This document shows, piece after piece, positions 728 through 48,844 of a DNA stretch of 64,000 bases. Position 1 is the stretch's first letter. Every line of letters starts with the position of its first letter. The position numbers and the translations under genes were made by a program. Source of the stretch: a virus; UHGV virus genome UHGV-1550212. One strand, 5' to 3'. The notes under the pieces are model-generated. The model was not told the origin of the DNA. It saw nothing but the letters and a program-made list of their open reading frames with translations, and did no database searches.

Positions 728-875
728 TTGCATCTTGCATCAAAACTCAAAAGTTTTGCATTTTGCATCAAAACAACATCTTAGTTGTTTTGCATCTTGC
801 ATCAAAACAACATCTTAGTTGTTTTGCATCTTGCATCAAAACAACATCTTAGTTGTTTTGCATCTTGCATCAAAA
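728..875 (+). repeat. tandem 34-bp direct repeats (about 4 copies) with TTGCAT(C/T)TTGCATC core
   Basis: TTTGCATCTTGCATCAAAACAACATCTTAGTTGT at 789-822 and 823-856, a partial copy at 857-875 and degenerate copies at 728-788; each unit carries the inverted repeat GTTGTTTTG / CAAAACAAC. Confidence 0.7.
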
Positions 876-904
876 ACTCAACTCACTTCAAAAACTCAAT
901 TCAT

Positions 905-1261
905 ATGCAAATCCCTCGTAACTGGGGGGGGGCACAACAAGCCCTCCAACAAAGAAAGCTGTTAAAGCAGTTCACCGTACATATTTATACTCGGTACACT
1001 ATACCAATTAGACTGACATTTCTTGATAGAGAATTGCCACAAGAAGTTGGTCCTATTAAAACAGTGACGCCAATGTTGTATGATAATAGTACAGCTATCA
1101 CAATTTACAAAGGCACGCAAGTGTTCTATGATTTGTACTATGATGAAGTTAAGTTTGCTACGCATATCATAGCAACACAAGGCAACACAAACTATGGTGA
1201 AATTGAATTTGACGCTGATGATATCAAAGCATCAGAATATGCAATATACATTGGTATTTGA
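905..1261 (+). CDS. hypothetical small protein; G9 homopolymer in codons 7-10
   Basis: ATG at 905-907 directly downstream of the tandem repeats; reading frame runs through the G9 tract (924-932) to the stop at 1261. The track's longer 785..1261 ORF starts inside the repeats (MFCILHQNN is repeat translation). Alternative start ATG 1075. Confidence 0.3.
   Translation: MQIPRNWGGAQQALQQRKLLKQFTVHIYTRYTIPIRLTFLDRELPQEVGPIKTVTPMLYDNSTAITIYKGTQVFYDLYYDEVKFATHIIATQGNTNYGEIEFDADDIKASEYAIYIGI
920..932. repeat. G9 homopolymer, right arm of inverted repeat; lies in codons 7-10 of ORF 905..1261
   Basis: AACTGGGGGGGGG; in frame the tract reads tgg ggg ggg gca (W G G A). Confidence 0.7.
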
Positions 1262-1330
1262 TAAGTAAATTTGTAAACATTTCAGACTATATTACACTTA
1301 GACTGTATCAATTAAGCGCGTCACAGTGCA

Positions 1331-1365
1331 CAAAAAAGACTCAGCAATATTGCTGAGTCTTTTTA
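1331..1365. terminator. bidirectional hairpin terminator
   Basis: A-run, stem AAGACTCAGCAA / TTGCTGAGTCTT (1336-1361), T-run; lies between convergent ORFs 905..1261 (+) and 1381..2136 (-). Confidence 0.55.
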
Positions 1366-1380
1366 TGCATTTGCAGTTCA

Positions 1381-2136
1381 TTACAGCATATTCCAGTTTG
1401 TCATGTCATACATGTTGAAGTTGAACGCTGATGTAATATGTTCAAGAGCAGTCAAGATGTCATTACCAACTACTGGGTCATTTGCAATAAGCAAAATACA
1501 GTCAGTGACAGACGTATCGACCATGTTGCCTGCTTGAAAATCATTGAGCATTAGCCATTCAGCAAAGCAGTTGTCATAGTACGCAGGCTTGCCTGCAAAC
1601 ACTTTATCATCTCCAAATGATTCAAATGGGTGCGACAATGTCGATGCAAGCAGTTGAATGTCTTCATCTGTGCAATGAGATTCAATTCCCTCAAGCACAA
1701 TTGCTACACGCCACTCATTTGTCTCTGAATCGCCTCTATGAATTTCGTGAATCCAGGGTAAGCATGCAAGTGTATCACCACATGTCAAATTGACATTATC
1801 AAGTGTCTCACCTTGACCTGCGTAGCAATATAAAGTGGAGCCAGTGCCATAACGTAGACAGTCATTTACACTGACATTATCAAGATACACTGAACAAATT
1901 GACAATGCACCTGCACCAAGCCTGTTTGCGGGAATTGTCAACTTATATGTTGGCACGCCATTTGGCTGCACTGTGATAGGTGAGCCTGCTAAGAATTCAC
2001 CAGTGTCAGCATCATAGCATTCGACTTCTTGCATAGTCGCATATGCAGCTTCAAGCAGTGAACCATCTGCTTTATTGATAGCGCCGCTGATAATAGTGTC
2101 ACGAAGAGCCCCCCGCGATTGACTGCTGGCGTTCAA
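1381..2136 (-). CDS. hypothetical virion protein
   Basis: 251-aa ORF; start codon at 2134-2136 is TTG (no in-frame ATG upstream before a stop); first internal ATG is codon 35. Confidence 0.45.
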   Translation of the reverse strand: MNASSQSRGALRDTIISGAINKADGSLLEAAYATMQEVECYDADTGEFLAGSPITVQPNGVPTYKLTIPANRLGAGALSICSVYLDNVSVNDCLRYGTGSTLYCYAGQGETLDNVNLTCGDTLACLPWIHEIHRGDSETNEWRVAIVLEGIESHCTDEDIQLLASTLSHPFESFGDDKVFAGKPAYYDNCFAEWLMLNDFQAGNMVDTSVTDCILLIANDPVVGNDILTALEHITSAFNFNMYDMTNWNML

Positions 2137-2220
2137 ACCAGAGTTGAGTAGTTTTCATAAGCGAAAAGACTTTTGTATGTGAAATTTATTGACATATTAT
2201 ATATCATGCTGCACTACGCA

Positions 2221-2256
2221 CAAAAAGAAGAGCATCGGTTGATAACCGATGCTCTT
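2221..2256 (-). terminator. rho-independent terminator
   Basis: Perfect 13-bp stem AAGAGCATCGGTT / AACCGATGCTCTT with 3-nt loop, followed on the minus strand by a T-run; 50 nt downstream of the stop of 2305..2919. Confidence 0.5.
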
Positions 2257-2304
2257 TCAAGTTCTGCTGTAAACTGTTCAATAGTGTAATCTCGTTGTAC
2301 TCGA

Positions 2305-2919: not shown

Positions 2920-2975
2920 TGTTCAAAATTGTTATAAAGTGAGTGTATATGTGTACAAAATTCGATGATTGCTCA

Positions 2976-3575: not shown

Positions 3576-3646
3576 TGTTACTGTGCAATTTTTAATTGTT
3601 TGACATGATATTTATATGCATTGCTTAAGCAATGTTGAATTGACAT

Positions 3647-6600: not shown

Positions 6601-7975
6601 TAAACGTGATGTCTTTTGATGCAGACTTACCATTTGCGGTGACTGTCAAGGTAACAACAAATCCATTACGTGCAGCAGTAGAATTGTTGTTTGTCACTGC
6701 GACATTCAAGCCAGATAAGCTATAGCCTGTTACAGCAGTTTTGACCGCAGCAGTCCATGTGCCACCTGATGTGTTGCTGTCAGTTGAACCGCTGCTGTAT
6801 GTCATTGACTGCGTAAATGTTGCAGATGCATTGGCTGCAACAGTTTGACCTGCTACTGCAAGAGCAACTGGTGTTGTCTTTGTAATGACTGGCGTGCCAT
6901 ATGTAATGCTGTTAGCAGCTTGTGTAATCGATACAGTAGCAGTTGCATTGCCATATGACGCTGTGCCACTAAATGACCGAGCATCACCGACAGTCTTGCC
7001 ACGATTTGCAGATGTTACAGAATTTGCAGATATCGTAAATCCTGTTGCAGTGCCAGTAATTGTAGGCTTGACATTTGTTTCAGTAGATGTAACAACACCA
7101 TTCCATGTTACAGTGTAAGTGCCTGTGATTGTTGATGTTCCACCTGCTGCAGTATGACTTGTTGAATATGCGTTCAGAGCAAGTTTGTATACGACTGAGC
7201 CTGCTGCTTGTGAACATTTAACAGTCTTCGATAAGTCATGACCACTTACAGTCAGTGTTGGTGTAACTGCTGCAGTTGATGCATTGTTCGGTGTATTGAC
7301 AGTGATTGTTACAGGGCCTGTGCCAGATGCTTTTGAGACTGACCAACCTGCAGGTACGCCTGAAATTGTCCATGCAAAGTCAGGGTTACAAGAAATTGCG
7401 AATGTTTTCGATTCACCCTTTGCAACAAATGACAGAGTTTCTGGTGATACTGCCAATGTTGCACTTGCACCAGCTTGATTTACAGTAAATGCTGCAGACT
7501 CGCCACCAGGCGTTGACAATGTAAAAGTGAACGCCTTTGCAGCGATTGCAGTATGTGCATCAATCTGCACTCGTACAATCACTTCAAATTCAGCATTGAC
7601 ACCAGGGTCATTGTCAAAGTTTGTGTTGAGCTCGTAGTTTTTGCCTGCAACAGTCACGCCAAGCACTGTGCCGCTTGCAGTACCACCAGTACTGCCAAGC
7701 ACAAGTTTTTGTGCATTTGTGACGCATTTCAATGTTGCAATAGTGCCACCATTTGACGCAATGTTTGTAGATGCAACTGTAGCTCGTATAGTTTCACCAG
7801 GAGACTCTTGCAATACTGCACAGTTTTCAGTTACTACTGGTGAACCTGTAGTTGTTTGCGCAGTAAAGCTGCCAGACCTGTTATTTCGACCAGTATGCAC
7901 AGATGCTTTGACAGACAACTGTGAGTTGCCTGTGCCAACATCAGGTGTAACTGTCAACCAAGTAGGCTTTGCCAT
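3647..7975 (-). CDS. large tail fibre/adhesin-like protein with BACON-like N-terminus and tandem Ig-like repeats
   Basis: 1442 aa, ATG confirmed; BACON-like N-terminus, then very Thr/Ser/Gly/Ala/Val-rich repetitive beta-rich sequence with recurring GGT.SG, LNGKSASK and VYQA motifs typical of Ig-like repeat arrays. Confidence 0.6.
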   Translation of the reverse strand: MAKPTWLTVTPDVGTGNSQLSVKASVHTGRNNRSGSFTAQTTTGSPVVTENCAVLQESPGETIRATVASTNIASNGGTIATLKCVTNAQKLVLGSTGGTASGTVLGVTVAGKNYELNTNFDNDPGVNAEFEVIVRVQIDAHTAIAAKAFTFTLSTPGGESAAFTVNQAGASATLAVSPETLSFVAKGESKTFAISCNPDFAWTISGVPAGWSVSKASGTGPVTITVNTPNNASTAAVTPTLTVSGHDLSKTVKCSQAAGSVVYKLALNAYSTSHTAAGGTSTITGTYTVTWNGVVTSTETNVKPTITGTATGFTISANSVTSANRGKTVGDARSFSGTASYGNATATVSITQAANSITYGTPVITKTTPVALAVAGQTVAANASATFTQSMTYSSGSTDSNTSGGTWTAAVKTAVTGYSLSGLNVAVTNNNSTAARNGFVVTLTVTANGKSASKDITFNQAAGAKVYETPVIGTFSYSNIAPAGGTSNPTVSYSQVWTWNGVAGSGGTLTSGATLSYAMTAKSRWTLNTTSGALTVTSMGTSYVGSTDASNAVTVTVAINGKSATKTATATQTANSKTLNGLTLTPGAATLAAGGGSTTITSTASYTYASGSTSSAAVSATLSGSATGFTLSTTTVTAANRTTVVGAERSITISGSYTEGGVTKTGSCTVKQAANTVSYGAVTISSFTVADIPATGGTIKSGNVSYSQTATYTSTSTQNITTGGTISYSPAAGISASSLGTSVKPRTKIGTLTVTVALNGKSASKAADVYQAAQSAGTVTYSDITVNLTPSATIIAASGGSVKSGTVTYSQVKTTTYATGEKTTETLTSGGTIEYTSTVTVQSKGTTISNQTTAGTLTVKVTMNGKSASKSATIYQAGNYVTALNIAVGSMSYPAIAAGGGTSTPSNGANTVTYHFSSGSTSTTAPASTYGSLSTTTSYSWPGASGLFTALNASTGAITASSKGTTASGATTSPTVTKTVKATWTPTASYNAAGTKTISGTKTATASQNANAATYGMPTVSMTYGDIPAKGGSVTPTVSFSQSVTWSSGSTQTVTSGGSKSWSGTGVTTSTGAVSGSSLGTTAKARTKITTSTVTVTVNGKSGTKAVDVYQAANAITTYGAVTISGGSVSDIPAGGGEVASMSGISASQTITYTSGSTRAGSVSIAYSTKVSASSLGTTVKARTKIGTLTATATGEGSKTATKALDVYQATNSVSYSAVTVTTATSYATFAAAGATKTPTGTPAYSQTATYTSGSKTTITSGGTISYSMATTTGFTLNSSTTGSLTAANRGTTAGSARTATVNMTVALNGQTGSKAITATQEANSVTSTTKTLIVSSTVTSFGAAGGTATLSTTGRTVTKYTTGQSTTSDAAVTPTYSSNNGAFTIRGSTLSAANNWGSDNSRSATITAALSGYTSGTVAVSQSGNGLAIPNMVVGTSFLVR

Positions 7976-8030
7976 TTTATGTCGTTTTGTTATTTTCTGT
8001 GATATTTACACACACAATGTAACTTGCATT

Positions 8031-15160: not shown

Positions 15161-15232
15161 TTCGAATGTGCACACATGAGAATAGGTCTCTTCGAATGTG
15201 CACATATGAGAATAAGTCTCTTCGAATATGTA
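15161..15232 (-). repeat. tandem ~30-bp direct repeats (2.4 copies) with TGTGCACA palindromic core
   Basis: TTCGAATGTGCACACATGAGAATAGGTCTC (15161-15190), TTCGAATGTGCACATATGAGAATAAGTCTC (15191-15220), then a partial copy TTCGAATATGTACACA; sits between a terminator and the gene start. Confidence 0.6.
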
Positions 15233-15266
15233 CACAAAAAGAAGAGCTTGCATATGCAAGCTCTTC
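15233..15266 (-). terminator. rho-independent terminator
   Basis: Perfect palindrome GAAGAGCTTGCATATGCAAGCTCTTC (15241-15266) followed on the minus strand by TTTTTG; 43 nt downstream of the stop of 15309..15692. Confidence 0.55.
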
Positions 15267-17948: not shown

Positions 17949-18006
17949 GTTGTTTATCTTAAGTTTGTATATGTACAAATACTGTTGATGTTGTATTGAA
18001 GCATCG

Positions 18007-19064: not shown

Positions 19065-20123
19065 TTATGAACGTCTTGTTAACAATGCATGACCACAATC
19101 ATAAACTGCAACATAGCCAGTGTTAAGCATCTCTTGCTCATCTTGGCCGGCGTCTACAATATGTTCTTTGCTGTTAAGTTTGACCCAGTGCTTGCAGATT
19201 GTTGATTTATCATCTGACAATTTAGGGTTAATGCAGAAGTCTGTTGAGTTTATTGTGTTGTCGAGATGTTGTTTGATGACATCGACAACTTGCTCTGGTG
19301 TCATCCAATCAAACACTGTTATGCAAGTGTAGCCATATTTGAGAGCAAGTTGAGCTTTGTTGAAGTGATAGTCGAATGGAATTGGATGATTGTGTTTTGA
19401 TTTGCCAATTGCATATGCATAGCCATATGTAGAGTTGTGACTGATTGTTGGGCAAATTTCAATCAGCAAATGCTTATAATGCAGGTCATATGACTGGCGT
19501 TCAATATTGACGTCATCACAGTCAAATGCAAGCCCAAGTTCTTGTAACAGCAAAGTTTGCCATCGTTTGTTTGTAGCTGATATGACATTTTTGTGAGCAT
19601 TGCGACATTTTTGATGCATACAAAAGAATGGGACACCATATTTTTGCTGCATCAATTTAGTGTCAATGCCTGCTGCATTGCCATAACGTTCAAGCTTCGT
19701 TGCTCTAATTTTGTCAGCATCACCCCAAATGTTGCCATATCGTTTGCGCTTTGTGTCTTGAGACTTCTTAATGTTGCCACTGCGGTTGCCATAAATAAGT
19801 TCCTTTGATTGACACGCATGTTCAGCAGCATCTGGCCCATATATGTGACCGTATTTTTGAAGCTTAATTTCATTGATACGTTCTACTGGGCCATTTGGAT
19901 GACCATAGCGTTCTTGTTTGATGCGTTTTGTGTGCTCAATTGTTGACTTTAATGCAAGCTTTGACGTGACGCCAAATTTGCGCAAACAGCCTATTCTAAT
20001 ATTGAAACTACGTTTAATATGTGATGCTTCTATTTTTGTAACAGCCAATTGCAATGCATCATCACGTTCAGTTTCAAGCATGCAAATTTGTTCATCAATT
20101 GTCATAGCATCAAACCATTTCAT
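19065..20123 (-). CDS. homing-endonuclease-like protein, paralogue 1 (tandem R/K-YG repeats plus C-terminal putative nuclease domain)
   Basis: 352 aa, ATG confirmed. Five repeats of the type K.ERYGHPNGP / KLQKYGHIYGP / RKRYGNIWGD / LERYGNAAG / QQKYGVP, then a conserved C-terminal block (YDLHYKHLLIEICPTISHNS ... VYDCGH) shared with 35290..36585 and 48845..49876; free-standing between conserved genes. Confidence 0.4.
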   Translation of the reverse strand: MKWFDAMTIDEQICMLETERDDALQLAVTKIEASHIKRSFNIRIGCLRKFGVTSKLALKSTIEHTKRIKQERYGHPNGPVERINEIKLQKYGHIYGPDAAEHACQSKELIYGNRSGNIKKSQDTKRKRYGNIWGDADKIRATKLERYGNAAGIDTKLMQQKYGVPFFCMHQKCRNAHKNVISATNKRWQTLLLQELGLAFDCDDVNIERQSYDLHYKHLLIEICPTISHNSTYGYAYAIGKSKHNHPIPFDYHFNKAQLALKYGYTCITVFDWMTPEQVVDVIKQHLDNTINSTDFCINPKLSDDKSTICKHWVKLNSKEHIVDAGQDEQEMLNTGYVAVYDCGHALLTRRS

Positions 20124-21693: not shown

Positions 21694-21720
21694 ATCTTCA
21701 AATGTATTTAGGATATGTAC

Positions 21721-22837: not shown

Positions 22838-22860
22838 TTTTTTTTATATTGTACAACGTA
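22838..22860 (-). promoter_or_regulatory. promoter-like element (CGTTGTACAATATA...)
   Basis: Minus strand reads ACGTTGTACAATATAAAAAAAACC immediately upstream of ATG 22827; same TTGTAC+TATA element as at six other loci. Confidence 0.4.
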
Positions 22861-22956
22861 AAGCATGCATTTGCATCTGTGTACGTTATTTTTATGCTGA
22901 GCACTCTGCGTAAAATAGCAAAATGCTTATTTTACGCAGGGTACTACAAATTAACT

Positions 22957-26295: not shown

Positions 26296-26357
26296 ATTGT
26301 TCAGATGTTTTGCTTTGTATATGTATCGAATCTCATTGCATTTGATTATGTATCACT

Positions 26358-26397
26358 GTGTGCATTTTGCATCACGAAGTGCATTTTGCATATCATC
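26358..26397. promoter_or_regulatory. two copies of TGCATTTTGCAT operator-like core
   Basis: GTGCATTTTGCATCAC (26360-26375) and GTGCATTTTGCATATC (26379-26394) in the 100-bp gap upstream of the fibre gene 22957..26295. Confidence 0.4.
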
Positions 26398-35289: not shown

Positions 35290-36585
35290 CTATTGTTTGC
35301 GTTGTAATGTCAGTAGTCCACAGTCATATACAGGTAAAAATCCTGCAGCATTGTAGTCTTCTGCATGTGATATGTCATTGTCTATAAAATGCTCACCAGT
35401 TCGCATATTATGCCAATGACATTGTATAACATTGCTTACTAATTTATAGTCATCTACATATTTTGTAGGGTCTTCTTTTGACAAGTCTATTGTAATAACG
35501 TCGGCAGTTTTCAATTGTTCTGTGTCATCGATGATTGACTTTAGCAATGCGACAATTGTATCAGCGTCATCCCAATCCCAAATTGTGACGCATCGATAGC
35601 CTTGCGACATTGCTTTGCAACATTTGTCTGCATGACTATTTGCATGTCTATGCCAATTTGCTGCAGAGCGGCCTGTCATATACTCAAAGCTATACGCACT
35701 ATTATGCGTAAACGTTGGATTGATTTCAATTGCTATGTTCTCATAGCGTAAGTCATATGTAAATGATTCTATTTGCGGTTGCTCAAACTCAAATTGAACG
35801 TTAAGCGATTCTAACAAGTATCGTTGCCACCATTGATTTTGCTTAGATATGATGTGACCTTGCGCAAGTTTACAATGTGTAGTCATGCAATAATATGGCA
35901 CACCATAACGCATCATATTTGTACGTACAACTGCTTGTGTGCGTCGTTTTAAGTCACCGCCCCACTTGTTGCCATACCGTTCAAGCTTTGTTTGCGTTGC
36001 CAGTTGTATATTCACACATCCATTTGCTTTGCCATATCGTTCAAGTTTGACTTGCGTAATTTTGTCCATAGGCCCAAATGCATTACCAAATTGTGCAATC
36101 TTTGTAGCTTTCATTTTGTCAATATTGCCAACACCTTTGCTGCCAAATCGAACAAGCTTAGTGTCGCCAACTTTGCATTTAACATCATGCAATTGTGATA
36201 TGAATTCTACACCGTATTTGAGCAAGTTATTGATGCGACCATTATAACGCTGTTTAATGATGCCATGCGATGTTTTGCGTGGTGCATAACGAACAAATGG
36301 TGTATTAGCAAGTTCAGCATCTCGCAATTCTTCAAGTTCTTTTATTCGAGCTGCATGTTCAGATGCGTTATCATATTGCAACGCGCCAGCATGACGTTCA
36401 TATGGCAATCTTCCATGCTTACGTATGAAAGCAATTTTGTTTGCATATTGCACACGTATCTTACTATGTGTAGATACTCTTGCGCTTAATTTTGCATATG
36501 GCGTTTCTGCAATCAATTTATCACGTTCAGCTTCAAGTTCTTTTATTCGAGCTTCAAGAGCATCACCAGTTAGTCGTTCAGCCAT
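35290..36585 (-). CDS. homing-endonuclease-like protein, paralogue 2 (with internal N-terminal module duplication)
   Basis: Track ORF 35290..36633; start placed at ATG 36583-36585 (MAERLTGDALEARIKELE). Coiled-coil N-terminal module present twice (nt 36300-36360 and 36500-36560 share CTTCAAGTTCTTTTATTCGAGC), R/K-YG repeats, C-terminal block IEINPTFTHNS ... VYDCG. Divergently adjacent to the terminase start. Confidence 0.4.
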   Translation of the reverse strand: MAERLTGDALEARIKELEAERDKLIAETPYAKLSARVSTHSKIRVQYANKIAFIRKHGRLPYERHAGALQYDNASEHAARIKELEELRDAELANTPFVRYAPRKTSHGIIKQRYNGRINNLLKYGVEFISQLHDVKCKVGDTKLVRFGSKGVGNIDKMKATKIAQFGNAFGPMDKITQVKLERYGKANGCVNIQLATQTKLERYGNKWGGDLKRRTQAVVRTNMMRYGVPYYCMTTHCKLAQGHIISKQNQWWQRYLLESLNVQFEFEQPQIESFTYDLRYENIAIEINPTFTHNSAYSFEYMTGRSAANWHRHANSHADKCCKAMSQGYRCVTIWDWDDADTIVALLKSIIDDTEQLKTADVITIDLSKEDPTKYVDDYKLVSNVIQCHWHNMRTGEHFIDNDISHAEDYNAAGFLPVYDCGLLTLQRKQ

Positions 36586-36652
36586 TGTGCATGAATGTTC
36601 AATATGTAAATTCACTATATGTACATATAACACGAATATTCAAGTTAGATGC

Positions 36653-38644
36653 ATGGCTGAAGTCAAGAATCAAGTGTTTAATCCAGTAGCACAATTCAAA
36701 TCTGCTGAAGAAAAAGAAGCTGCGAAAGTTATATGGTGCAGTGAATCAGTCGCAATGGCATATGATGCAGTTGACCAAGGCTTGCCACTTAGAGCAAATC
36801 CGTGGTTCTTTGGCAATATTGCACTGCGTAAGCCCGGATTGCTATACAGATACACTGACATAGAATTGCGTGAATGGCTTAGATGCAAGTATGACATATT
36901 ATATTTTGCTGACACATGGTGTCAGATTTTAACTCCAGATGGCACAAGAAAGCATTTTAATTTGAGACCATATCAACGCAAAATGCTGCGTGCATATCAA
37001 CGACAAAAGTATACGATAGTTCTTACTGGGCGACAAGTAGGCAAAACGGTCGTTACATCAGTATTTCTCGCTTGGGCAGTCATTTTCAATCGTGAGCTTA
37101 ACATAGCAGTACTTGGCGACCGCTTGGCAACATCAAGTGAAAACCTGAACAAAACAAAAGACATCATAAACAATCTGCCGTTCTTTATGAAGCCTGGTGT
37201 GTTTGTTTGGAATGGCGGAATGGTCGCATTTGACAATGGTTGCAAAATTATCACAGGTACTGCTCAAAAGTCATCACTTGTCGGTAAGACAATTCACATC
37301 TTATATCTTGATGAGCTCGCAATTCCACCTGCTCAGCAATCAAAGACTCTTGTAGATTATGCATTGCCAACAATTGCGTCATTGCCAACTGGCAAAGTTA
37401 TCGTAACATCTACGCCATCTGGTGATAATGTGTTCAAGACTTTGTGGCTTGGTGCAATTAACAAAACAAATGGCTTCTTTCCAATTCAAGTAAACTGGTG
37501 GGATATTCCTGGCCGTGATGAAAAGTGGAAAGCTGAGCAAATCGCAATTCTTGGTGAAGATGCTTTCAATGAGCAATACAACTGCGTGTTCTTGTCAGGT
37601 GCAACGTCAATTTTCAATTCAAGAGCAATTGATGATATTGCAAGACGACAGCAAAAGTATGAATTTGTTGCTGATGAGCGTCTTGAATCACTACTCAGAT
37701 TCTTCATTGCTGATTCAGATGTCGGCACTGAACCCGAGCCGCACTCATTTATGACTTGGCGTGCAGATATTGACCCAGCAACACTCAAAAATGAAACATG
37801 TATCATCAATATTGACATTGCTGAAGGTTTATCTGGCGACTTTTCTGTCATACATGTGCATCGTATAGTTGACATTACAAAAGATGTTGAACTTGAACTT
37901 GATGCAAGCAATCTGTATGATATGTTTGACGATGACAAAAAATCATTGTTTGCAAAAGCAGTTGAAATGCAACGTCAAATGTCAGCAACACAAGCTCAAG
38001 ATGATGACGATGATGACGATGACGACTGGTTTGGCGCAGACGATGATGTCGCTCAAGGCGTTGATGCATATCAAGATTATGCGAATGCTGCAGTAGAAGA
38101 GATTGGCTTATGGCGTTCAAATGTGACATCAATCAAAGTCATGGCTCTGTATTTGCAGTTCTTAATGACGTATGTGTTTGATGCAAACAAAACAAAGATT
38201 ATCTATGAACGCAACAAATATGGTGGAGAGTTTCGTTCATATTGTTTGTCTGAACGTGCACGCAATATTGCAATTGATGAAGAGAGCTTCGTAAGCTTCC
38301 AACGAACTCTTGGTTCAGAACAACTTGCACCAGGCTGTTCAATTACGCCTGGCACCAAACCAGTGTACGTAAGACAGCTCAAAGACCTTATTGAAACTGG
38401 CAAGATTCTTGAAAACAATGCAGATACGCAAAGAGAGCTTACATATTTTGGCGGTGTCAAAGGCAAGAATGGTCACGTGTCATATCAGGCGTCACCTGGC
38501 TTCCATGATGACATTGCAATGACTCTTGTATCTCTTGCAGCATTTATGGACACTCGATGCAATGACTGGCTTGAACTGCTTGATGTGTTCTACAATGGCA
38601 GCAGTCAAACAAGTTCTGATGATGACGATGATGACTGGATTTGA
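36653..38644 (+). CDS. terminase large subunit
   Basis: ATG at 36653 (MAEVKNQV); the track's 36425 start overlaps the neighbouring minus-strand gene. ATPase motifs LTGRQVGKT (Walker A) and ILYLDELA (Walker B), followed by a nuclease-type C-terminal half. Contains an internal D9-W-F tract (38000-38029) and ends DDDDDDWI. Confidence 0.7.
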   Translation: MAEVKNQVFNPVAQFKSAEEKEAAKVIWCSESVAMAYDAVDQGLPLRANPWFFGNIALRKPGLLYRYTDIELREWLRCKYDILYFADTWCQILTPDGTRKHFNLRPYQRKMLRAYQRQKYTIVLTGRQVGKTVVTSVFLAWAVIFNRELNIAVLGDRLATSSENLNKTKDIINNLPFFMKPGVFVWNGGMVAFDNGCKIITGTAQKSSLVGKTIHILYLDELAIPPAQQSKTLVDYALPTIASLPTGKVIVTSTPSGDNVFKTLWLGAINKTNGFFPIQVNWWDIPGRDEKWKAEQIAILGEDAFNEQYNCVFLSGATSIFNSRAIDDIARRQQKYEFVADERLESLLRFFIADSDVGTEPEPHSFMTWRADIDPATLKNETCIINIDIAEGLSGDFSVIHVHRIVDITKDVELELDASNLYDMFDDDKKSLFAKAVEMQRQMSATQAQDDDDDDDDDWFGADDDVAQGVDAYQDYANAAVEEIGLWRSNVTSIKVMALYLQFLMTYVFDANKTKIIYERNKYGGEFRSYCLSERARNIAIDEESFVSFQRTLGSEQLAPGCSITPGTKPVYVRQLKDLIETGKILENNADTQRELTYFGGVKGKNGHVSYQASPGFHDDIAMTLVSLAAFMDTRCNDWLELLDVFYNGSSQTSSDDDDDDWI

Positions 38645-38651: not shown

Positions 38652-38709
38652 CACATCATCACAAAACAAGCCAGCAGAATTGTCTGCTGGCTTGTTTTGT
38701 GATGATGTG
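38652..38709. terminator. long perfect hairpin between convergent genes (bidirectional terminator)
   Basis: 27-bp arms CACATCATCACAAAACAAGCCAGCAGA / TCTGCTGGCTTGTTTTGTGATGATGTG with a 4-nt loop; between the terminase stop (38644) and the DHFR stop (38713). Confidence 0.6.
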
Positions 38710-40250: not shown

Positions 40251-40252
40251 TG

Positions 40253-41254: not shown

Positions 41255-41294
41255 ATTTGGGACGGATTCTTGTCTTTACTTTACTATATGAAAA

Positions 41295-41340: not shown

Positions 41341-41363
41341 ACGTCTGTTTTGTACATATGCAG

Positions 41364-41732
41364 TTATTTGATTGCACGTTCAAACATTCTGCAGCACCAG
41401 TCTTTATATGCAGGATTGCCCTTGACATCTGCTCGGAATGCGCAGTTGATAAGAGTCTTCTCCTCATTAACAAAGCATGCATAACGGCAGTTTGCGCAAC
41501 AACGAGCATCTTCTTGTTTTGTGCAAAATGCTGCACATGTCATGTCATCTTCTGTGTTGCGAATTGTTTTTGTTGGCGTGTACTCATAAGTGCACTGACA
41601 AATGCCATTATGCTCACGATGAAAGAAGCAATTTTTGCAAATATGTGCAACTTCTTCAACTGGTGCTGATGCTGCATATGTTTGTTCTTGCTCTACTGCA
41701 GACTGTGCAGCAACTTTAGTCTTTTTTGCCAT
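41364..41732 (-). CDS. cysteine-rich protein (probable metal-binding)
   Basis: Track ORF 41364..41816 starts inside the tandem repeats; start placed at ATG 41730-41732 (MAKKTKVAAQ). 122 aa with 14 Cys including CKNCFF, CQC, CCANCRYAC, CC. Confidence 0.45.
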   Translation of the reverse strand: MAKKTKVAAQSAVEQEQTYAASAPVEEVAHICKNCFFHREHNGICQCTYEYTPTKTIRNTEDDMTCAAFCTKQEDARCCANCRYACFVNEEKTLINCAFRADVKGNPAYKDWCCRMFERAIK

Positions 41733-41757
41733 TGTATCAAATATTTGTATTTGTAAG

Positions 41758-41832
41758 TTGTTTTGATGCAAAATGCAAAACAATATAAAATTGTTTTGAT
41801 GCAAAATGCAAAACAATATAAAATTGTTTTGA
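41758..41832 (-). repeat. tandem 33-bp repeats (2.3 copies) carrying the TGCATTTTGCATC core
   Basis: GTTTTGATGCAAAATGCAAAACAATATAAAATT x2 plus a partial copy; 26 nt upstream of the Cys-rich gene and just downstream of the ligase stop. Reverse complement of the motif in the 728-875 array. Confidence 0.6.
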
Positions 41833-41835
41833 TAT

Positions 41836-43740
41836 CTACAAAGATTTGAACAATTCCTCGTATGTTACAATTTTCTTGCCTTTTGCAAGTGCTGCTTTCA
41901 TTTTGTTCGACAGCTTGTTGACATCATTTGTGACAACATAGTCACATGCATCAATGTTTGCACCGACATCTTCAAGCTTACCATTTGCTGCATCAATAAA
42001 TGCGCCTTTTGTAGCCCAAGTAGGCTTAGGCGAGCCCGTCATGACAACTTTGATTGCTGCATCATTTGTAGACGTCTCTTTATGCATTTCATTAAACATT
42101 ACGAAGCATTGCGGAAAATGCTTGAGCAATCTTTGTATGACATTCAGCTTTATGAGCTTGTCAATTGGCTCCATGCTCAAGCCCTTAAAGTCATACTGAC
42201 AATTGCTGAAGTATGCAGATAACTGATACGCTGCTTTGCTGCCAAGACCAGGAATCTGCATGCATTCAATGAAATGCGATAAGTAAATGCTACTGAAGCG
42301 TTCACGTAAGCCTGCAATGACTGTACGGTCATTTTTGCTGTTTGTGTCAAACTGCAGCAGCTCAAACAGTCGTTCATTGTCAACTTCTTGCACAATGCAG
42401 AACAAGTCTTCAATTGTGGGCGCATCAGAGAATGTCAACATGACATCAAGATTGTCTTGTGCAATAAGCAAAGCCTCGCAAATTTTCGTAGCATAAACCC
42501 AACCAAGCCCATCGATGTTAAGCTTGCAAACGCCTTTGATAAACCTCGTGCATCTTGCAAATTCCTCAGGCATCATCAAGTGAATGCCATCGACATATGC
42601 ATGTACAGGAATGTCAGCTTTGCTGATATCACCAGGTTCAATACATTCTTGAATGTCTGGAATAATGTCGCCGCCCTTTTCAATACGAACAAGAGCGCCA
42701 GGCCAAATGTCATTTGCATGCAAAAAGCCATAGTGAAATGCTGAAGCTGCTTTTACTGTAGTGCCATCAAGCTCAACAGGCTCAAGTTCAACTCTCGGAA
42801 AAAGCTCACCATTGATTCGCTGACGCCAATCAATTCTAGTCACTCGAGTTACAGCAGACATTGCATCAAGCTTCAATGCAACCATGTTTGCGTATTCTGC
42901 TGCATTTGCAAACTGCTGCTCAATCCACAAGTCATCTGCAAAAGGCTTGACTACAATGCCATCAATGCGATATTTGAATTCTGGGCGTTCATTAGCAATT
43001 TTTGTGCAAGTTTCTGCAAACTCATTGTAATCAGTGACTTCAAAGACTTCTGCAATGAATTCTGCAGGCCAGCCAACTTTAGCAAGAGCATCTGCAGGAT
43101 TGGTTTGCTCATATGTTTTGCCATCAAGTGTGTCAGTCAACATGTATGCCATAGGGTCAATGTCTTCCATGCCACACATATCTAATGACTTCACAAATGC
43201 CGCAGCAGTATTACGCTCATTTTTGTATTTAACTGAGCCATCAGAGTTGAAGTGATACTTTTGTGCAAAAATGTCTTTTGCAATGACAGCTTCAAAGCGA
43301 ATCTGATATGGCTGTTCTGCTGCAGCAAGCTGCATCGGCACTTTGCCTGCTACAACAAATTTGCGCGTGACATCATAGCCCGTATAGCCATCACCACGAG
43401 TAACAACTTTTAGCAATCTGCCATCAGTGTCGTAATGTGCTTCACAGCCCATGCCGTCATACTTGTGCATAAGTAACATTTTATAACCAACAATGTTGCA
43501 CACAATATCATGCAATGTGGTTGTAAACTGTGACTTTGTGTGAATTGCAGCAAGACTTAATGCAGGTGTAAGATGCTTAACTTCTTGCTTGTTTGACTCT
43601 TCAAAACGAATCTTATGTTTAATGTCATCATTTGCAAGAAGCTGCTGTTCAAGAGCATCAAATGCATCATCAGACATTATCGGATTGCCCGCATAATATG
43701 CAGCTATAGCGTCATGGTACGTATTGAGCATGTCAGTCAT
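41836..43740 (-). CDS. ligA: NAD-dependent DNA ligase
   Basis: 634 aa, ATG confirmed. Adenylation motif HKYDG (KxDG) and VTRGDGYTGYDVT (LigA motif TRGDGxxGEDVT). Confidence 0.7.
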   Translation of the reverse strand: MTDMLNTYHDAIAAYYAGNPIMSDDAFDALEQQLLANDDIKHKIRFEESNKQEVKHLTPALSLAAIHTKSQFTTTLHDIVCNIVGYKMLLMHKYDGMGCEAHYDTDGRLLKVVTRGDGYTGYDVTRKFVVAGKVPMQLAAAEQPYQIRFEAVIAKDIFAQKYHFNSDGSVKYKNERNTAAAFVKSLDMCGMEDIDPMAYMLTDTLDGKTYEQTNPADALAKVGWPAEFIAEVFEVTDYNEFAETCTKIANERPEFKYRIDGIVVKPFADDLWIEQQFANAAEYANMVALKLDAMSAVTRVTRIDWRQRINGELFPRVELEPVELDGTTVKAASAFHYGFLHANDIWPGALVRIEKGGDIIPDIQECIEPGDISKADIPVHAYVDGIHLMMPEEFARCTRFIKGVCKLNIDGLGWVYATKICEALLIAQDNLDVMLTFSDAPTIEDLFCIVQEVDNERLFELLQFDTNSKNDRTVIAGLRERFSSIYLSHFIECMQIPGLGSKAAYQLSAYFSNCQYDFKGLSMEPIDKLIKLNVIQRLLKHFPQCFVMFNEMHKETSTNDAAIKVVMTGSPKPTWATKGAFIDAANGKLEDVGANIDACDYVVTNDVNKLSNKMKAALAKGKKIVTYEELFKSL

Positions 43741-43972: not shown

Positions 43973-43973
43973 T

Positions 43974-44417
43974 TCATTGCAATTGTTTTTGATACGCTAT
44001 CAATTCATTAAGCAATTCATCTGCATGACATTGAACAAGCAGTTGCCACGTTTTTGAATCAATGCCCTCAGTTTGCATATACAAGTCTACTACTCGTTTG
44101 TCAAACTTGTTTATTGCATCTACAGTAGCATTACTTGCAGGTTTGTCAACTTTCTTACCGCTGATAAAAGACCATTTTGGCTGTCTTGCATTACCAAGTT
44201 CTCTATGATAAGCATTCATAACTTGTGTCATGTCCATACCGAGTTTGTTGAATGCTTGAGCAATCTGCGGAAAGGCTATGGCAACATTGCGATTTGTCAT
44301 GAATGCATTGTCTGCTTTTTGTTTTGCAGTCAACTTATCATAATCGCTATCACGAACATACAATAGCTCCTTGAATTTGAAGAAGTCTACTTTTTGTGTG
44401 ATGAATTGTTCTGCCAT
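43974..44417 (-). CDS. hypothetical protein
   Basis: 147-aa ORF, ATG confirmed (cat 44415-44417); first gene downstream of promoter-like element 44433-44478. Confidence 0.45.
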   Translation of the reverse strand: MAEQFITQKVDFFKFKELLYVRDSDYDKLTAKQKADNAFMTNRNVAIAFPQIAQAFNKLGMDMTQVMNAYHRELGNARQPKWSFISGKKVDKPASNATVDAINKFDKRVVDLYMQTEGIDSKTWQLLVQCHADELLNELIAYQKQLQ

Positions 44418-44432
44418 TGAAGTTTATTGTTA

Positions 44433-44478
44433 TATAGTGATATAGTACAACAAAAATCTCAAATTTGCACACTATGAT
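44433..44478 (-). promoter_or_regulatory. composite promoter-like element
   Basis: Minus strand: ATCATAGTGTGCAAATTTGAGATTTTTGTTGTACTATATCACTATA, 15-60 nt upstream of ATG 44417; near-identical copies at 59956-60000 and 62388-62428. Confidence 0.5.
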
Positions 44479-45208: not shown

Positions 45209-45213
45209 TGTTG

Positions 45214-46557
45214 TCAGAATTGAAACATGTTGTTGATAAACGTATCGCCAAACTGCGCATCTGCAGCTTTTGACGTTATGTCATACGTTGCTGCATTGAT
45301 GCCGAGTGCAGTTATTGTTGATTGCGCATCTACAAGTTCATACACTTTGCAGCTTGGCTTTGTAATGTCTGTAAACGACATTGTGTACATGAAGTTTTCA
45401 AAGATATGTCTTGGTACTTCACGTGCATTCAAACATGCAAGTTGTCTATTTTCTGCAAATCGCGCCTTGAGCCATTCAAAGTCATCTGCAGGTACTGAGT
45501 CAACATTCATGAATGTCTTATATGCTGCAGTCAAAAACATTGCAATGACTTCGTCATCATACAAATCTTCACCAAGCATATATCGCATGCCAGGTTCCAA
45601 CTGTTTTGCATTGTCAGTTTCAATACCAAGAGACTTCAATGCATCGTAGATTTGGCCTACAGATAAATGCGACCAATTGTTGCCACGTTTCTTGAGCTTG
45701 CCAAACAATTCTGGGATGTTGTCACCAGCATCACCAAGCACAATCTTGTAAAACAAGAAACTTGGCACATGTTCATGAATCTCTGCATCAACATACTCAA
45801 GCAATGCTGCATATGGGTTGTCAAGAATGCGTGTTTTAACTTGAGCACCAGCAAAGCTGTCGAAGATGCTGCCGCCGACATTCTGCGACTTTTCACCAGC
45901 AAGTTCTTTGATGTGTTCAAGCACAAACTTGTCGCCCATCAGTACTCGAGACTTCTGCCACCCATTTGCTTTGCAGCCATTTTTGATGATTGCATATGCT
46001 GAACATGCGCCAGTGTATGTGTCAACACAAACACATTGAGTCAAGTCTTTGTCAGTGCCTTGATACAACACATTGCGGCCTTTTGACGTTGCATATCTGC
46101 TAAGCATGAAGATGACATCATCAGCTTCTGCTTCAGAAAGCTTAATGTGACGAATGCCATGCACTTCTTGCATCAACTTCAACCAGTCAAAGTATACACC
46201 ATAAACTTTGAGCCAGTTGATTGTCTGGTCATATGTTCGAGTGCCTTTGTAACCAGCATCTTCACCTTGTTCAAAGCCCTCTCTTGTCAAGTATTGATGC
46301 TTTGAGCGCCACAAATTCGACTTTTTGTCATCGACCGCAATGATGACATCATCAACAACATCTTCAAGTCTACGAAGCTCATTACAAAGGTCGAGCGTTA
46401 ACTTGGATATCAAAGACAGTCTTGATGCATTCTCATTCTTTTCGAATGACAAGTCTGTGCCTGATTTTGCTAATACTGGCACTCTGCTCTTCAACCACCA
46501 GCTTCCATCAATTACGTAGATGAACTTGTGATTATGAGTATTGTCAAGCTTTGTCAT
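45214..46557 (-). CDS. 5'-3' exonuclease / flap endonuclease (T4 RNase H-like)
   Basis: 447 aa, ATG confirmed. FIYVIDGSWW (N-terminal metal-site I.D motif), VIIAVDDKKS, LSEAEADDVIFML and GTDKDLTQCV match the FEN/T4 rnh acidic motifs. Confidence 0.55.
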   Translation of the reverse strand: MTKLDNTHNHKFIYVIDGSWWLKSRVPVLAKSGTDLSFEKNENASRLSLISKLTLDLCNELRRLEDVVDDVIIAVDDKKSNLWRSKHQYLTREGFEQGEDAGYKGTRTYDQTINWLKVYGVYFDWLKLMQEVHGIRHIKLSEAEADDVIFMLSRYATSKGRNVLYQGTDKDLTQCVCVDTYTGACSAYAIIKNGCKANGWQKSRVLMGDKFVLEHIKELAGEKSQNVGGSIFDSFAGAQVKTRILDNPYAALLEYVDAEIHEHVPSFLFYKIVLGDAGDNIPELFGKLKKRGNNWSHLSVGQIYDALKSLGIETDNAKQLEPGMRYMLGEDLYDDEVIAMFLTAAYKTFMNVDSVPADDFEWLKARFAENRQLACLNAREVPRHIFENFMYTMSFTDITKPSCKVYELVDAQSTITALGINAATYDITSKAADAQFGDTFINNMFQF

Positions 46558-46805
46558 TGTCTGAATGCTTTTGCAATTGCTGATGTTGAGAGCATTGGCA
46601 CACTACCATTTTTGAAGCGAGGCTTTTTGTTTGACAACGACCACTTTTGCTTATGCCACTTTGAGCAGTTTGTGCCACGATTTGTTACATCTGCGCCGGA
46701 CCTTGAGCACTTGAGTCGGAAATCTTGTGCAGATGTGCAGTGCTTCTTTATTGAATGCTGACAATTATAGCAGCATTTATCTTGTGGTGTCACTGGATAT
46801 CTCAT
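46554..46805 (-). CDS. small basic Cys-rich protein (putative)
   Basis: Track ORF 46554..46913 overlaps the upstream gene; an internal ATG at 46805 gives an 83-aa basic protein with CCYNC ... C ... C. Confidence 0.3.
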   Translation of the reverse strand: MRYPVTPQDKCCYNCQHSIKKHCTSAQDFRLKCSRSGADVTNRGTNCSKWHKQKWSLSNKKPRFKNGSVPMLSTSAIAKAFRQ

Positions 46806-46806
46806 G

Positions 46807-47274
46807 TCATTCAATGATAAGCGTATGACCAACTTCTTTCGCAAATGACACAATGCAGCCAAACAATTGCGGGTCACACCAAGGCTTGATGAACTGCTGC
46901 CACCAGTGAACATCAGATGACACCATCATTTCTTTGACAAGGTCTTCCTTTTCCCTGTCAAGATATGCAATATCACCCAATGCAAACATTGACTTCAAGA
47001 TGTTATCATCACTCATGTCAAACTTGCCAAGCCCTTGTTCGTCAACTTTTCGTGCAACTTTTATTGCATCAGGCAGCTTGCATGCCCCATTTGCGCATAA
47101 ACATGCTGCAAGAATTACAAATGCAGGCTTCTTATCCTGTGCAAGTCTGTATGCCCAATTGCGTGTTGCAGGAAAGTTTGGTACCCTGATGTCTACACCT
47201 TGAGGCAGATTTGATTCTTTAACTGCTTTGAGCTTGGCATCACTGCCAACCATGCCCATCTTTATTTGTGTCAT
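46807..47274 (-). CDS. hypothetical protein
   Basis: 155-aa ORF, ATG confirmed. Confidence 0.45.
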   Translation of the reverse strand: MTQIKMGMVGSDAKLKAVKESNLPQGVDIRVPNFPATRNWAYRLAQDKKPAFVILAACLCANGACKLPDAIKVARKVDEQGLGKFDMSDDNILKSMFALGDIAYLDREKEDLVKEMMVSSDVHWWQQFIKPWCDPQLFGCIVSFAKEVGHTLIIE

Positions 47275-47401
47275 ATATCAATCTTGGTCAAGAAATTGTT
47301 CTTCGTCATTTGACTGTTTCTTTGTCGACTCATCGACATTGTCTGCATCAAGCCATTTGTCATCTTGCTTGACTGTTCCAGTATCTGGTGCGTTCATATT
47401 G

Positions 47402-47797
47402 TCATCGGTTCTTTGAAAATGAAACTTGTGTTGATTGCTGTGGTCGTATATCGACAAACACTGAATCTACTGCGTCAAACTTAAGTGTCGCAAGTGAATC
47501 AATTGTCTGTCTTGCTTTTTGCAACTTGCGTGCTTTGATGCCTGATACTGTTGCAGACTTTTCAAGCAGATATGCATCACGAGGCGTCCAGTAACGAGCT
47601 TGCCAACGCATATGCATAGAGTCAACAATCAGATTTTCTGCTGCAGCGTCAATAATTGCCGCAGTTGATTGCTGAGTTGCATCAAGTCGTTGCTGCAACA
47701 CTGCTAATTGTTTTGTGTGCTGTTGCTGATGTTTGAATACTATGCTGATTGCTCCAAATAAGAGAAACCATGCAATAAACTGCAAAAATGACTTCAT
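47402..47797 (-). CDS. hypothetical membrane-anchored protein
   Basis: 131 aa, ATG confirmed; N-terminal hydrophobic segment FLQFIAWFLLFGAISIVF. Confidence 0.4.
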   Translation of the reverse strand: MKSFLQFIAWFLLFGAISIVFKHQQQHTKQLAVLQQRLDATQQSTAAIIDAAAENLIVDSMHMRWQARYWTPRDAYLLEKSATVSGIKARKLQKARQTIDSLATLKFDAVDSVFVDIRPQQSTQVSFSKNR

Positions 47798-48768
47798 GAT
47801 TGCTGCACGAATTTTGAGAGCTCGAATGATAATGCGAGCATTGTTATGAATTGGTCAATTGATTGTTTCGACTCTACACCGTATTTGTGAGCTGCAATGA
47901 CAATGTCTCCAAGTCGTGCAACAAAACCGGGTGTGTTCTTTGAGAGCTTTGCATAGCACCAATTTGCAAAGTCAGTTGAGAGAGCATTGATGACTTCGGT
48001 TTCACGACCTTTGTATTGTGACAGTGTTTTGTAAAATTCACGTGGGTCTTTGCATGCAACAATGAAATCATACAGTTCTTCAAACTTTGCTGACATGCCC
48101 TTTGTGACATGCTCAAGCGTTATATGACGCTCGCCTTGATTGAAGACAAAGTAGCAAATGTTCAGAATTTTGCGGAAGTCTGGGTAGTTATCTTGAATTA
48201 GCTTGATGAGCGCTTCTTTTTCAATTGTGCATTCATTTTCCTTCAAGATATTGTAGACGCGAACCATGCATTTCTTCATCAACTGTTCTGCGACATCATC
48301 AGAAAAGTCGAATGATAGCATTTTGAGACGAGATTGAGCAATTGATGCATCAATGCGGTCTGGATAGTTGCAAGTTGCAATGAAAAACGCGATGCCTGCA
48401 AACTCTTCAATGGTGCCTCTTAAAGCCATCTGACTTTGCACAGATAAAAAATCCATTTCATCAAGCAGCACAACCTTTACGCCACTTGACGACAATGACA
48501 TATGCTGACAGAATTCTGAAATTGTGTTGCGAACTGTGTCAATGCCAGAATTCTTTGAGCAGTTAATTTGCAAAATTGAACGCCTATCAGTCCACTTCAA
48601 TGCCAATGCTCTTGCTGCGGTTGTTTTTCCACTTCCTGGTGCTCCTGCGAACAAATAATTTTGCGGCTGACCATTAAATGCTGCAGCATAATCATCAGGC
48701 ACAATTAACTCTTCGACTTTTGTTGGCCTGTAGCGTTCTAACCAAGTTTTATCTTTAAGGGATGCCAT
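47794..48768 (-). CDS. sliding-clamp loader ATPase (T4 gp44-like AAA+)
   Basis: Track start 48801 is TTG; ATG at 48766-48768 used. WLERYRPTKVEELIVP, FAGAPGSGKTT (Walker A), VVLLDEMD (Walker B) and NYPDFRKIL parallel T4 gp44 (KYRPSTIDECILP, SPGTGKTT, VIVIDEFD, NFPDFRKTI). Confidence 0.75.
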   Translation of the reverse strand: MASLKDKTWLERYRPTKVEELIVPDDYAAAFNGQPQNYLFAGAPGSGKTTAARALALKWTDRRSILQINCSKNSGIDTVRNTISEFCQHMSLSSSGVKVVLLDEMDFLSVQSQMALRGTIEEFAGIAFFIATCNYPDRIDASIAQSRLKMLSFDFSDDVAEQLMKKCMVRVYNILKENECTIEKEALIKLIQDNYPDFRKILNICYFVFNQGERHITLEHVTKGMSAKFEELYDFIVACKDPREFYKTLSQYKGRETEVINALSTDFANWCYAKLSKNTPGFVARLGDIVIAAHKYGVESKQSIDQFITMLALSFELSKFVQQS

Positions 48769-48775
48769 TTGTTGT

Positions 48776-48844
48776 TTGTTGTGATATGTGATATGATGCA
48801 AAATGCATATTCATATTGTATATGAATATGATACAACAAACGTG
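48776..48844 (-). promoter_or_regulatory. promoter-like region upstream of clamp loader
   Basis: Minus strand: CGTTTGTTGTATCATATTCATATACAATATGAATATGCATTTTGCATCATATCAC; combines the TTGTA+ATAT element with one TGCATTTTGCATC core. Confidence 0.45.

Follow-up and report, generated by a model that had tools for sequence, protein, structure and literature searches.

A strain-variable intergenic repeat beside promoter-like elements of an uncultured gut phage, tentatively read as an operator-type site

Results

A double-heptad motif recurs at four intergenic loci

We analyzed a 64,000-nucleotide stretch of the virus genome UHGV-1550212 (hereafter, the window), which belongs to an uncultured gut phage lineage with a genome of ~176 kb, and within it a 13-base motif, TGCATYTTGCATC, that recurs between genes. 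The motif occupies four intergenic loci: locus 1 (729-871; five copies, plus strand) between divergent open reading frames (ORFs), locus 2 (26361-26391; two copies, plus) upstream of the fibre gene for a 1112-amino-acid BACON-domain protein (22957-26295, minus), locus 3 (41765-41810; two copies, minus) upstream of a Cys-rich ORF (41364-41732, minus), and locus 4 (48795-48807; one copy, minus) upstream of a gp44-like clamp loader gene (47794-48768, minus). A first-pass annotation, made from the sequence without database searches, had reported a recurring core in arrays at four loci beside these same genes, and its recurrence is confirmed, with nine exact copies and one 12-base copy; the neighbors are as that annotation described them.

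The nine exact matches begin at 729, 757, 791, 825, 859 and 26361 on the plus strand and at 41765, 41798 and 48795 on the minus strand, against 0.09 expected; the maximum in dinucleotide shuffles was one. The tenth copy, a 12-mer at 26380-26391 (plus), lacks the final C. The motif scan for enrichment and intergenic bias that had been proposed gave a clear result in the window: only 7.3% of the window is non-coding according to our own ORF map, and CATYTTGCATC was non-coding in nine of nine copies. The 12-mer was non-coding in 10 of 11 copies, the sole coding copy being at 10485, so the motif is not equally frequent inside genes, as a by-product of codon usage would be. The lone heptamer TTTGCAT is not enriched away from the four loci and is as common in genes as between them, and therefore it is the double unit alone that stands out. 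The core, TGCA-N3-TGCA, comes close to symmetry and in no case overlaps a start codon.

Two classes of promoter-like element accompany the motif

Two other sequence patterns, both distinct from the motif, are concentrated upstream of genes. The first, class A, conforms to rTGCAAAW-N14-GTAYNATAT. Its shorter form TGCAAAW-N14-GTAYNAT was found at eight sites (22848-22875, 44442-44469, 48828-48855, 57750-57777, 59964-59991, 60032-60059, 60082-60109 and 62399-62426) against 0.04 expected, always on the minus strand, which carries almost every long ORF of the window, and always with a spacing of 14 nt. Class A sites precede replication and tRNA genes, and they recur in the related contigs L168 and L169 (54-60% terminase identity) and in L294, a near-identical strain that reaches 9.4 kb past the window. 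The second, class B, is GTACATAT; 12 sites were observed where chance would give 1.9, among them those at 701-712, 977-984, 15226-15233, 17969-17976, 21713-21720, 36617-36628, 41352-41359, 56046-56053 and 60722-60729. The start codons that follow class B sites at 20-35 nt are those of structural genes and the terminase; the sites often come straight behind a terminator hairpin and are palindromic where they separate divergent genes (36617-36628 and 701-712). From position and enrichment we infer that class A elements are middle-type and class B elements late-type promoters.

No motif locus is farther than ~100 bp from an element of class A or B. The view that the motif is not itself a core promoter is thus borne out, as the promoter-like signals are these two other motifs beside it. 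It had also been argued that the orientation of the motif relative to the downstream gene differs between loci. This is correct (sense at loci 3 and 4, antisense at locus 2, between divergent ORFs at locus 1), but it carries little weight as an argument, since the core is near-symmetric and three of the four loci are in sense downstream of a predicted promoter-like site.

Some promoter-like sites have repeats of their own. An unrelated tandem array at 15161-15236 (30-bp unit, 2.5 copies) repeats the GTGCACAT copy of the class B site, another at 59900-59940 (16-bp unit, 2.6 copies) occupies the leader behind a class A site, and a third (17-bp unit, 4.8 copies) lies upstream of the terminase site of L168 (9874-9960). 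A perfect 32-bp palindrome at 60038-60070 is centred on a class A box (TGCAAATTTGCA).

Anatomy of the four loci

The array of locus 1 spans 711-875 on the plus strand, in an 874-bp non-coding, AT-rich stretch. Its units have the form [CAAAAC-spacer-GTTTTG][CATYTTGCAT], repeated with a 28-bp period over 711-774 and then with a 34-bp period over 753-875, which makes five cores and two unit lengths where about four copies had been counted. The array begins one base past the palindromic class B site CATATGTACATATC (699-712, both strands), in which GTACATAT reads at 705-712 on the plus strand and at 701-708 on the minus strand; its presumed promoter function is judged from position and enrichment. 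Locus 3 (array 41758-41833, minus), earlier described as 2.3 copies of a 33-bp unit, has exactly this structure, with cores at 41765-41777 and 41798-41810 in sense before the Cys-rich ORF. Its array begins one base past a class-B-like site, GTAGATAT (41832-41839, minus), which overlaps the stop codon of an NAD-dependent ligase gene (41836-43740, minus), and the junction GTAGATAT-CAAAAC is that of locus 1 (ATATC-AAAAC).

The other two loci are simpler. At locus 2 the cores (26361-26373, and 26380-26391 without the final C) are 19 bp apart, antisense to the flanking genes and 4 nt from the stop codon of ORF 26396-30199. A class-B-like site, ATACATAT (26319-26326, minus), conserved in the related contig L166, lies 23 nt upstream of the ATG of the 1112-amino-acid gene, and in the direction of that gene the inverted cores are ~35-70 nt upstream of ATACATAT. 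The single core of locus 4 (48795-48807, minus) is in sense, 26 nt upstream of the clamp-loader ATG, and stands between that ATG and a class A site, TGCAAAA-N14-GTATCATAT (48826-48855, minus), which is conserved in L035. It is abutted by a perfect 11-bp palindrome, CATATTCATAT-ACA-ATATGAATATG (48806-48830, minus), that falls within strain-specific extra DNA.

In these loci a 10-nt core, CATYTTGCAT, is closed by a G-C pair and flanked by inverted arms whose sequence varies between loci. The unit given in the first-pass annotation was hence too short, the real one being core, G-C closure and inverted arms. The 22-mer GTTTTGCATYTTGCATCAAAAC, in which the core is framed by GTTTTG and CAAAAC, is conserved at loci 1 and 3, 41 kb apart, and its arms are often lengthened to TTGTTTTG...CAAAACAA. 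The arms of locus 4 (ATATG/CATAT, 5 bp) are unlike those of loci 1 and 3; at locus 2, copy 1 has GTG/CAC (3 bp) plus one G-T pair and copy 2 is armless. Each arm is able to pair either across the core or across the spacer. Spacers are identical within an array and diverge entirely between arrays (AACATCTTAGTT or TCAAAA at locus 1 vs AATTTTATATT at locus 3).

A CRISPR array was rejected, as the spacers inside each array are identical, not unique; intrinsic-terminator and integration host factor (IHF) site readings were ruled out on sequence. The peptide MFCILHQNN that opens ORFs 785-1261 (plus), 819-965 (plus) and 41364-41816 (minus) is a translation of the array, and the earlier suspicion that it is an artefact was right.

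The motif turns over rapidly between strains

Gut metagenomes yield near-identical contigs of 175.6-176.9 kb that are mutual circular permutations with differing break points. Among isolates, Chryseobacterium phages MA9V-1 and MA9V-2 (40-47% identity), Sphingomonas phage PAU and Tenacibaculum phage PTm1 are nearest in terminase sequence, all of them T4-related jumbo phages (PMC7824862). Shine-Dalgarno sequences are absent before the start codons of the window genes, which together with the BACON domains suggests a host among the Bacteroidota.

Every locus differs among strains that share 93-99% identity with the window. Five cores make up locus 1 in the window and in L292, against three in L293, two in L002 and at least three in L170; locus 2 has two in the window and one in L166. 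At locus 3 there are two cores in the window, three in L001, and two with loop variants in L039-L045 and L171. The single core of locus 4 is missing from the near-identical L035, L039 and L041, and the window has ~36 extra nt there. L037, L038 and L169 keep the ligase gene followed by the Cys-rich gene, and a class B site, but carry no array there; in L169, GTACATAT stands at the position equivalent to GTAGATAT of locus 3. The intergenic DNA of L167, L168 and L169 was free of cores as far as 10 kb from the terminase.

The surroundings vary as well. Locus 1 forms an 87%-identical island with cassettes replaced on either side, and the DNA after its array is an ORF in the window and, in an IMG/VR strain, 240 unrelated nt that carry a terminator of their own. 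In strain OGNF the array is followed after ~50 nt by a bidirectional terminator, and no ORF is present. A gene segment 165 bp from locus 4 is replaced, and loci 2 and 3 are within uninterrupted 94%-identical DNA. These strain differences, together with the inverted arms and the fixed junction between promoter-like site and array, were lacking from the earlier description, and because of them readings at the RNA level and in terms of repeat turnover remain in play.

Beyond the close strains the motif is rare. The armed 22-mer was found only at loci 1 and 3 in a 175-kb relative and only in this phage in the Joint Genome Institute (JGI) metagenome collection. The sequence had no match among INPHARED phages (megablast and blastn), and a literature search for the 12-mer returned unrelated primer sequences only. 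A scan of IMG/VR with a 15-mer core was dominated by chance matches among the at least 120 matches listed, which did not extend to the contig of the relative; an array scan of IMG/VR gave mostly (TTTGCAT)n microsatellites, and one of bacterial genomes was dominated by (TGCATCT)n microsatellites in a few metagenome-assembled genomes (MAGs). Microsatellites of both kinds, (TGCATCT)n and (TTTGCAT)n, were met at numerous loci of a small set of MAGs from Bacteroidota and Anaerolineae, and of giant-virus contigs (L172-L251; L003-L034). A 216-kb phage contig from the same sample, L028 (IMGVR_UViG_3300045988_164638), carries at 6760-6940 six units of 33-36 bp, AAAGTnnG-TGCRTTTTRCAY-ACACTT. This array (AAAGTGT-G-TGCATTTTGCAT-ACACTTT) shares the core and the arm layout of the motif but has no detectable homology to the window and neither promoter class, and was set aside as a coincidence.

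The arms can pair across the core

In an alignment of 14 units, 70% of the cells of the across-core helix were paired vs 59% in shuffles, of which 1 in 500 scored as high. The covariation score was 0.348 vs 0.172 in shuffles (none of 500 as high), and slid controls reached at most 0.223; units of one array are related and only three independent arm types exist, which inflates the test and makes it moderate evidence, not proof. The arms differ in sequence yet keep their complementarity (TTGTTTTG/CAAAACAA, ATATG/CATAT, GTG/CAC), and the spacer helices are extended through compensating pairs (AAT/ATT vs AAC/GTT) around loops that are TTTAT, TTTAC, CATA or TATA depending on the strain. Among 120 random IMG/VR occurrences of the core (TTGCATYTTGCATCA) none had a closing stem of 5 bp or more. 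Predicted RNA folds leave the core unpaired between helices, with a z-score of -4.6 at locus 1. An Rfam search of the window returned only tRNAs at the gathering threshold and nothing meaningful at locus 1.

A candidate operator-type site

Operators are common in phage intergenic DNA. Our preferred reading, which we hold tentatively, is that the motif is a candidate recognition site for one sequence-specific factor, an operator-type site on double-stranded DNA beside the phage's own promoters. Binding would be by a protein, with DNA and not RNA as its target. The sites of loci 3 and 4 stand between a promoter-like element and a start codon, where a bound protein could block or slow transcription; at locus 1 five sites would fill one side of a palindromic, apparently bidirectional late-type element, and at locus 2 two sites would act from upstream of the fibre-gene element. 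Tandem copies may raise occupancy, and replication slippage, by altering the copy number, would tune the strength.

The features expected of operators, specific repeated sites close to promoters and kept out of coding DNA, are present, with promoters predicted from motif enrichment and position. A sequence-specific function is favored over pure slippage because the identical 13-mer stands in unrelated flanks at loci 2 and 4, and the 22-mer is identical at loci 1 and 3 despite their diverged spacers. Because conservation is nested (core, then arms, then spacer), the constraint appears to act on the core rather than to reflect local duplication. Locus 2, being antisense and essentially armless, fits a DNA site and not an RNA element, and the occurrence of the full armed unit at only two loci in the 175-kb relative would suit a dedicated regulator.

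Several observations weigh against an operator. Core-to-core spacings (centre to centre) of 19, 28, 33 and 34 bp do not keep a constant helical phase. Relatives at 54-63% protein identity are without the motif, and sites are not retained with the regulated gene in relatives, as operator sites would be; given this absence and the gain, loss and expansion between strains, the motif sites are dispensable. The inverted arms, 8-9 bp at loci 1 and 3 and 5 bp at locus 4, are not needed by a protein that binds duplex DNA. No DNA-binding domain was detected among the 40 window ORFs tested, and no binding protein could be named. The reverse complement of the core, GA-TGCAAAA-TGCAAAA-C, amounts to two overlapping class A upstream boxes (TGCAAAW), the class A site at 22848-22875 contains GATGCAAATGCAT, the core less one A, and L169 has three tandem copies of TTGCAAAAT upstream of a class A site. 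In a scan of the window with a class A box weight matrix, though, the motif cores came no higher than ranks 23 and 44, mixed with many coding sites. As this test shows no specificity, the resemblance to the box is no more than a weak lead that the factor reading the class A box may also bind the motif.

The first-pass annotation had favored a binding site for a trans-acting regulator encoded by the phage. Such a site is plausible, but the regulators proposed found no support. For the Cys-rich protein, Pfam, PHROG and PDB gave no match and a set of 5.8 billion sequences just three homologues; its AlphaFold model is unusable (predicted local distance difference test score, pLDDT, of 39), and its gene is kept in the array-less L037 and L169. 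As for the sigma factor, Pfam and PHROGs revealed none among the 40 window ORFs, and PDB sequence searches of ORF 43974-44417 and the Cys-rich ORF gave no match.

Among known systems, a promoter-side operator array is the closest working likeness in pattern, and the diheptad recalls omega-type heptad operators. Operator arrays are short direct repeats for phage or plasmid regulators, and the omega repressor of pSM19035 binds heptad arrays. As with omega heptads, two contiguous 7-bp repeats (here TTTGCAT and YTTGCAT) make up the minimal site, which occurs in either orientation, clustered at several promoters and in variable copy number. Unlike omega heptads, the diheptads are not contiguous and lie 19-34 bp apart, the inverted arms have no omega counterpart, and neither a ribbon-helix-helix protein nor any other DNA-binding protein was found in the 40 ORFs searched.

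Alternative readings of the motif

The DNA reading and an RNA reading are close. In the latter, possible although somewhat doubtful in our assessment, the motif would be a leader module at the 5' end of mRNAs, a helix with unpaired CAUYUUGCAU(C) that serves as an RNA-binding protein site or affects stability or elongation in the manner of nut/put elements or 5' stabilizers; locus 1 would then give a multi-site leader or a short non-coding RNA. The arrays of loci 1 and 3 begin one base past GTA(C/G)ATAT, the core of locus 4 lies between class A and ATG, and all three are in sense; the arms covary, and the sole armless locus (2) is the sole antisense one. Helices kept by compensating changes around a conserved unpaired sequence lend moderate support, variable spacing is harmless to an RNA, the folds leave the core exposed, and OGNF has promoter, array and terminator without an ORF. 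However, while three of the four loci would lie in sense in leaders according to the predicted promoters, locus 2 would not: it is antisense, has no helix and would need an unproven antisense promoter. Starts 6-8 nt past the elements would put the first arm of each of these two arrays (1 and 3), and the greater part of the locus 4 palindrome (11 bp), outside the transcript, and both promoters and start sites are predicted only. The covariation test is inflated by related units, there is no Rfam match, the core overlaps no start codon, and no RNA-binding protein was identified. The leader elements nut (lambda) and put (HK022) are likewise just downstream of a promoter (here a predicted one), in sense, lineage-specific, and built of a helix and a conserved unpaired sequence; unlike them, the motif is in tandem (two to five copies), comes without an antiterminator protein or a long terminator-studded downstream operon, and at locus 2 does not fit. 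A more elaborate version, which we regard as improbable, would make locus 1 a multi-site decoy RNA with a late-type promoter, two to five repeats of helix plus CAUYUUGCAUC and, in some strains, a terminator without an ORF, which would titrate an RNA-binding protein that docks on the Cys-rich and (in this strain) clamp-loader leaders. If true, this would amount to a sponge circuit like that of CsrB, in a phage of Bacteroidota, a phylum not known to possess Hfq or CsrA.

Repeats that need no factor, prone to slippage and recombination beside promoters like promoter-early stem-loop (PeSL) cassettes or repetitive extragenic palindromic (REP)-like sequences, could be tolerated in intergenic DNA and may aid cassette exchange. 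We consider this unlikely: it agrees with the variation in copy number and presence among near-identical strains, with the unrelated arrays beside promoter-like sites at 15161-15236, 59900-59940 and in L168, and with the position of locus 1 as an island between replaced cassettes and of locus 4 near a replaced segment, but not with an exact 13-mer common to loci with unrelated flanks (2 and 4 vs 1 and 3), a 22-mer identical despite diverged spacers, loci 2 and 3 inside uninterrupted DNA, or just four loci per ~75 kb in place of dozens. PeSLs mark insertion or replacement junctions in T4-like phages (PMC4122927), which favors the comparison; in them an early promoter comes after a terminator stem-loop, and the many copies stand singly (PMC2839356, PMC4122927). 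Like PeSL and PmSL composites, the motif forms short, conserved, intergenic stem-loop/promoter composites in a T4-related phage, and two of four loci are linked to insertions or replacements between close strains, locus 1 lying at such a junction and locus 4 near one, loci 2 and 3 at none. Unlike in PeSLs, the promoter-like site comes first and an AU-rich helix plus core follows, in tandem arrays, so that a terminator stem-loop followed by an early promoter is not what these loci contain. An iteron-type origin at locus 1, and perhaps locus 3, where an initiator would bind beside AT-rich DNA and the nearby promoter would give a primer transcript, as promoters do at the T4 origins oriE, oriF and oriG, is distinctly unlikely. 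In the window, locus 1 does have five regularly spaced direct repeats, above the three expected as a minimum, in AT-rich non-coding DNA beside a promoter-like site, and locus 3 borders a replication block (ligase, exonuclease, clamp loader, topoisomerase). Regular direct repeats in such DNA, with more copies near a second locus, resemble the iterons of plasmid and phage origins, T4 oriE among them. Unlike iterons, however, the copies are unstable in number (two in L002) and include isolated ones at the unrelated promoters of loci 2 and 4, which an origin leaves unexplained; no initiator gene was recognized, the neighbors being a fibre-like ORF, small ORFs, the ligase gene and the Cys-rich ORF, without any Rep-like domain. 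The window shows no skew signal, AT-richness is common to all of its intergenic DNA, and the arrays are absent in relatives that keep the neighboring genes. Least probable of all is that the units themselves are promoters, either tandem class A upstream boxes or host-type Bacteroidota promoters (TTTG ... TAnnTTTG). Read leftward, the proximal box of locus 1 is 17 nt from GTACATAT, TGCAAA-N15-CATAAT is readable at locus 2, and YTTG-N18/19-TTGTTTTG is present in each unit of loci 1 and 3. But class A spacing is strictly 14 nt and no array has a box exactly 14 nt from GTAYNAT (at locus 1, box and element are 17 nt apart in the window and 23 nt apart in L002), a -10-like partner is missing from most units, loci 3 and 4 have boxes that face away from the gene, and the intergenic DNA of the window shows no enrichment of the host-type consensus.

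We do not assign the motif element to any named family, as it fails defining features of each system compared, and rate it as a phage cis-regulatory repeat specific to its lineage. How genes are controlled in this lineage was previously undescribed, and three cis-elements can now be listed: two family-wide promoter-like classes and the strain-variable motif. Should the motif be an operator, as we tentatively prefer, or a leader RNA site, it would offer a handle towards the first regulator of the lineage, with repeat copy number tuning regulatory strength between strains; should it be a mere slippage product, it would still mark cassette-exchange hot spots beside tail-fibre-like genes.

Surroundings of the loci and other features of the window

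The 290-bp promoter-plus-array segment of locus 1 is flanked by the inverted repeats GTGAC(10)AGTT (612-629) and AACTG(9)CAC (920-935). The homopolymer in each is just behind the ATG of an ORF (525-644, minus, and 905-1261, plus), both of which start with M-x4-N-W-G-G. Its length varies: L002 has C7, and L292, identical at 99.98% apart from this, has G10. From the sequence, a phase-variable or invertible switch beside tail-fibre-like genes is possible. The 39-amino-acid ORF 525-644 (minus) is in frame with a fibre-like gene (99-506, minus), one TAA and six codons intervening, and in L292 a paralogue with 68% identity to 99-506 lies directly downstream, along with a partial copy in inverted orientation.

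Three paralogous genes on the minus strand (19065-20123, 35290-36633 and 48845-49876) have DNA segments that are 80-82% identical, and two of the three match DUF7487; they are possibly mobile, endonuclease-like genes. The last is directly upstream of locus 4, and its middle (48971-49751) is replaced in other strains.

The T4-like replication and packaging genes of the phage include, in the window, a T4-type large terminase (36653-38644, plus), a 5'-3' exonuclease (45214-46557, minus) and a topoisomerase II A subunit (56298-57758, minus). Dihydrofolate reductase and several BACON-domain proteins are also encoded. The convergent terminase and dihydrofolate reductase genes are separated by a 27-bp perfect inverted repeat (38652-38709), which is probably a bidirectional terminator. 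ARAGORN predicted a permuted transfer-messenger RNA (tmRNA) at 60727-61169 (minus) with a tag peptide of 31 residues. In a local search, the Rfam model tmRNA_permuted matched 60818-61138 with 30.8 bits vs a gathering score of 47 (E = 2e-4). The region may thus encode a phage tmRNA, and seven tRNA genes (61161-62334) adjoin it.

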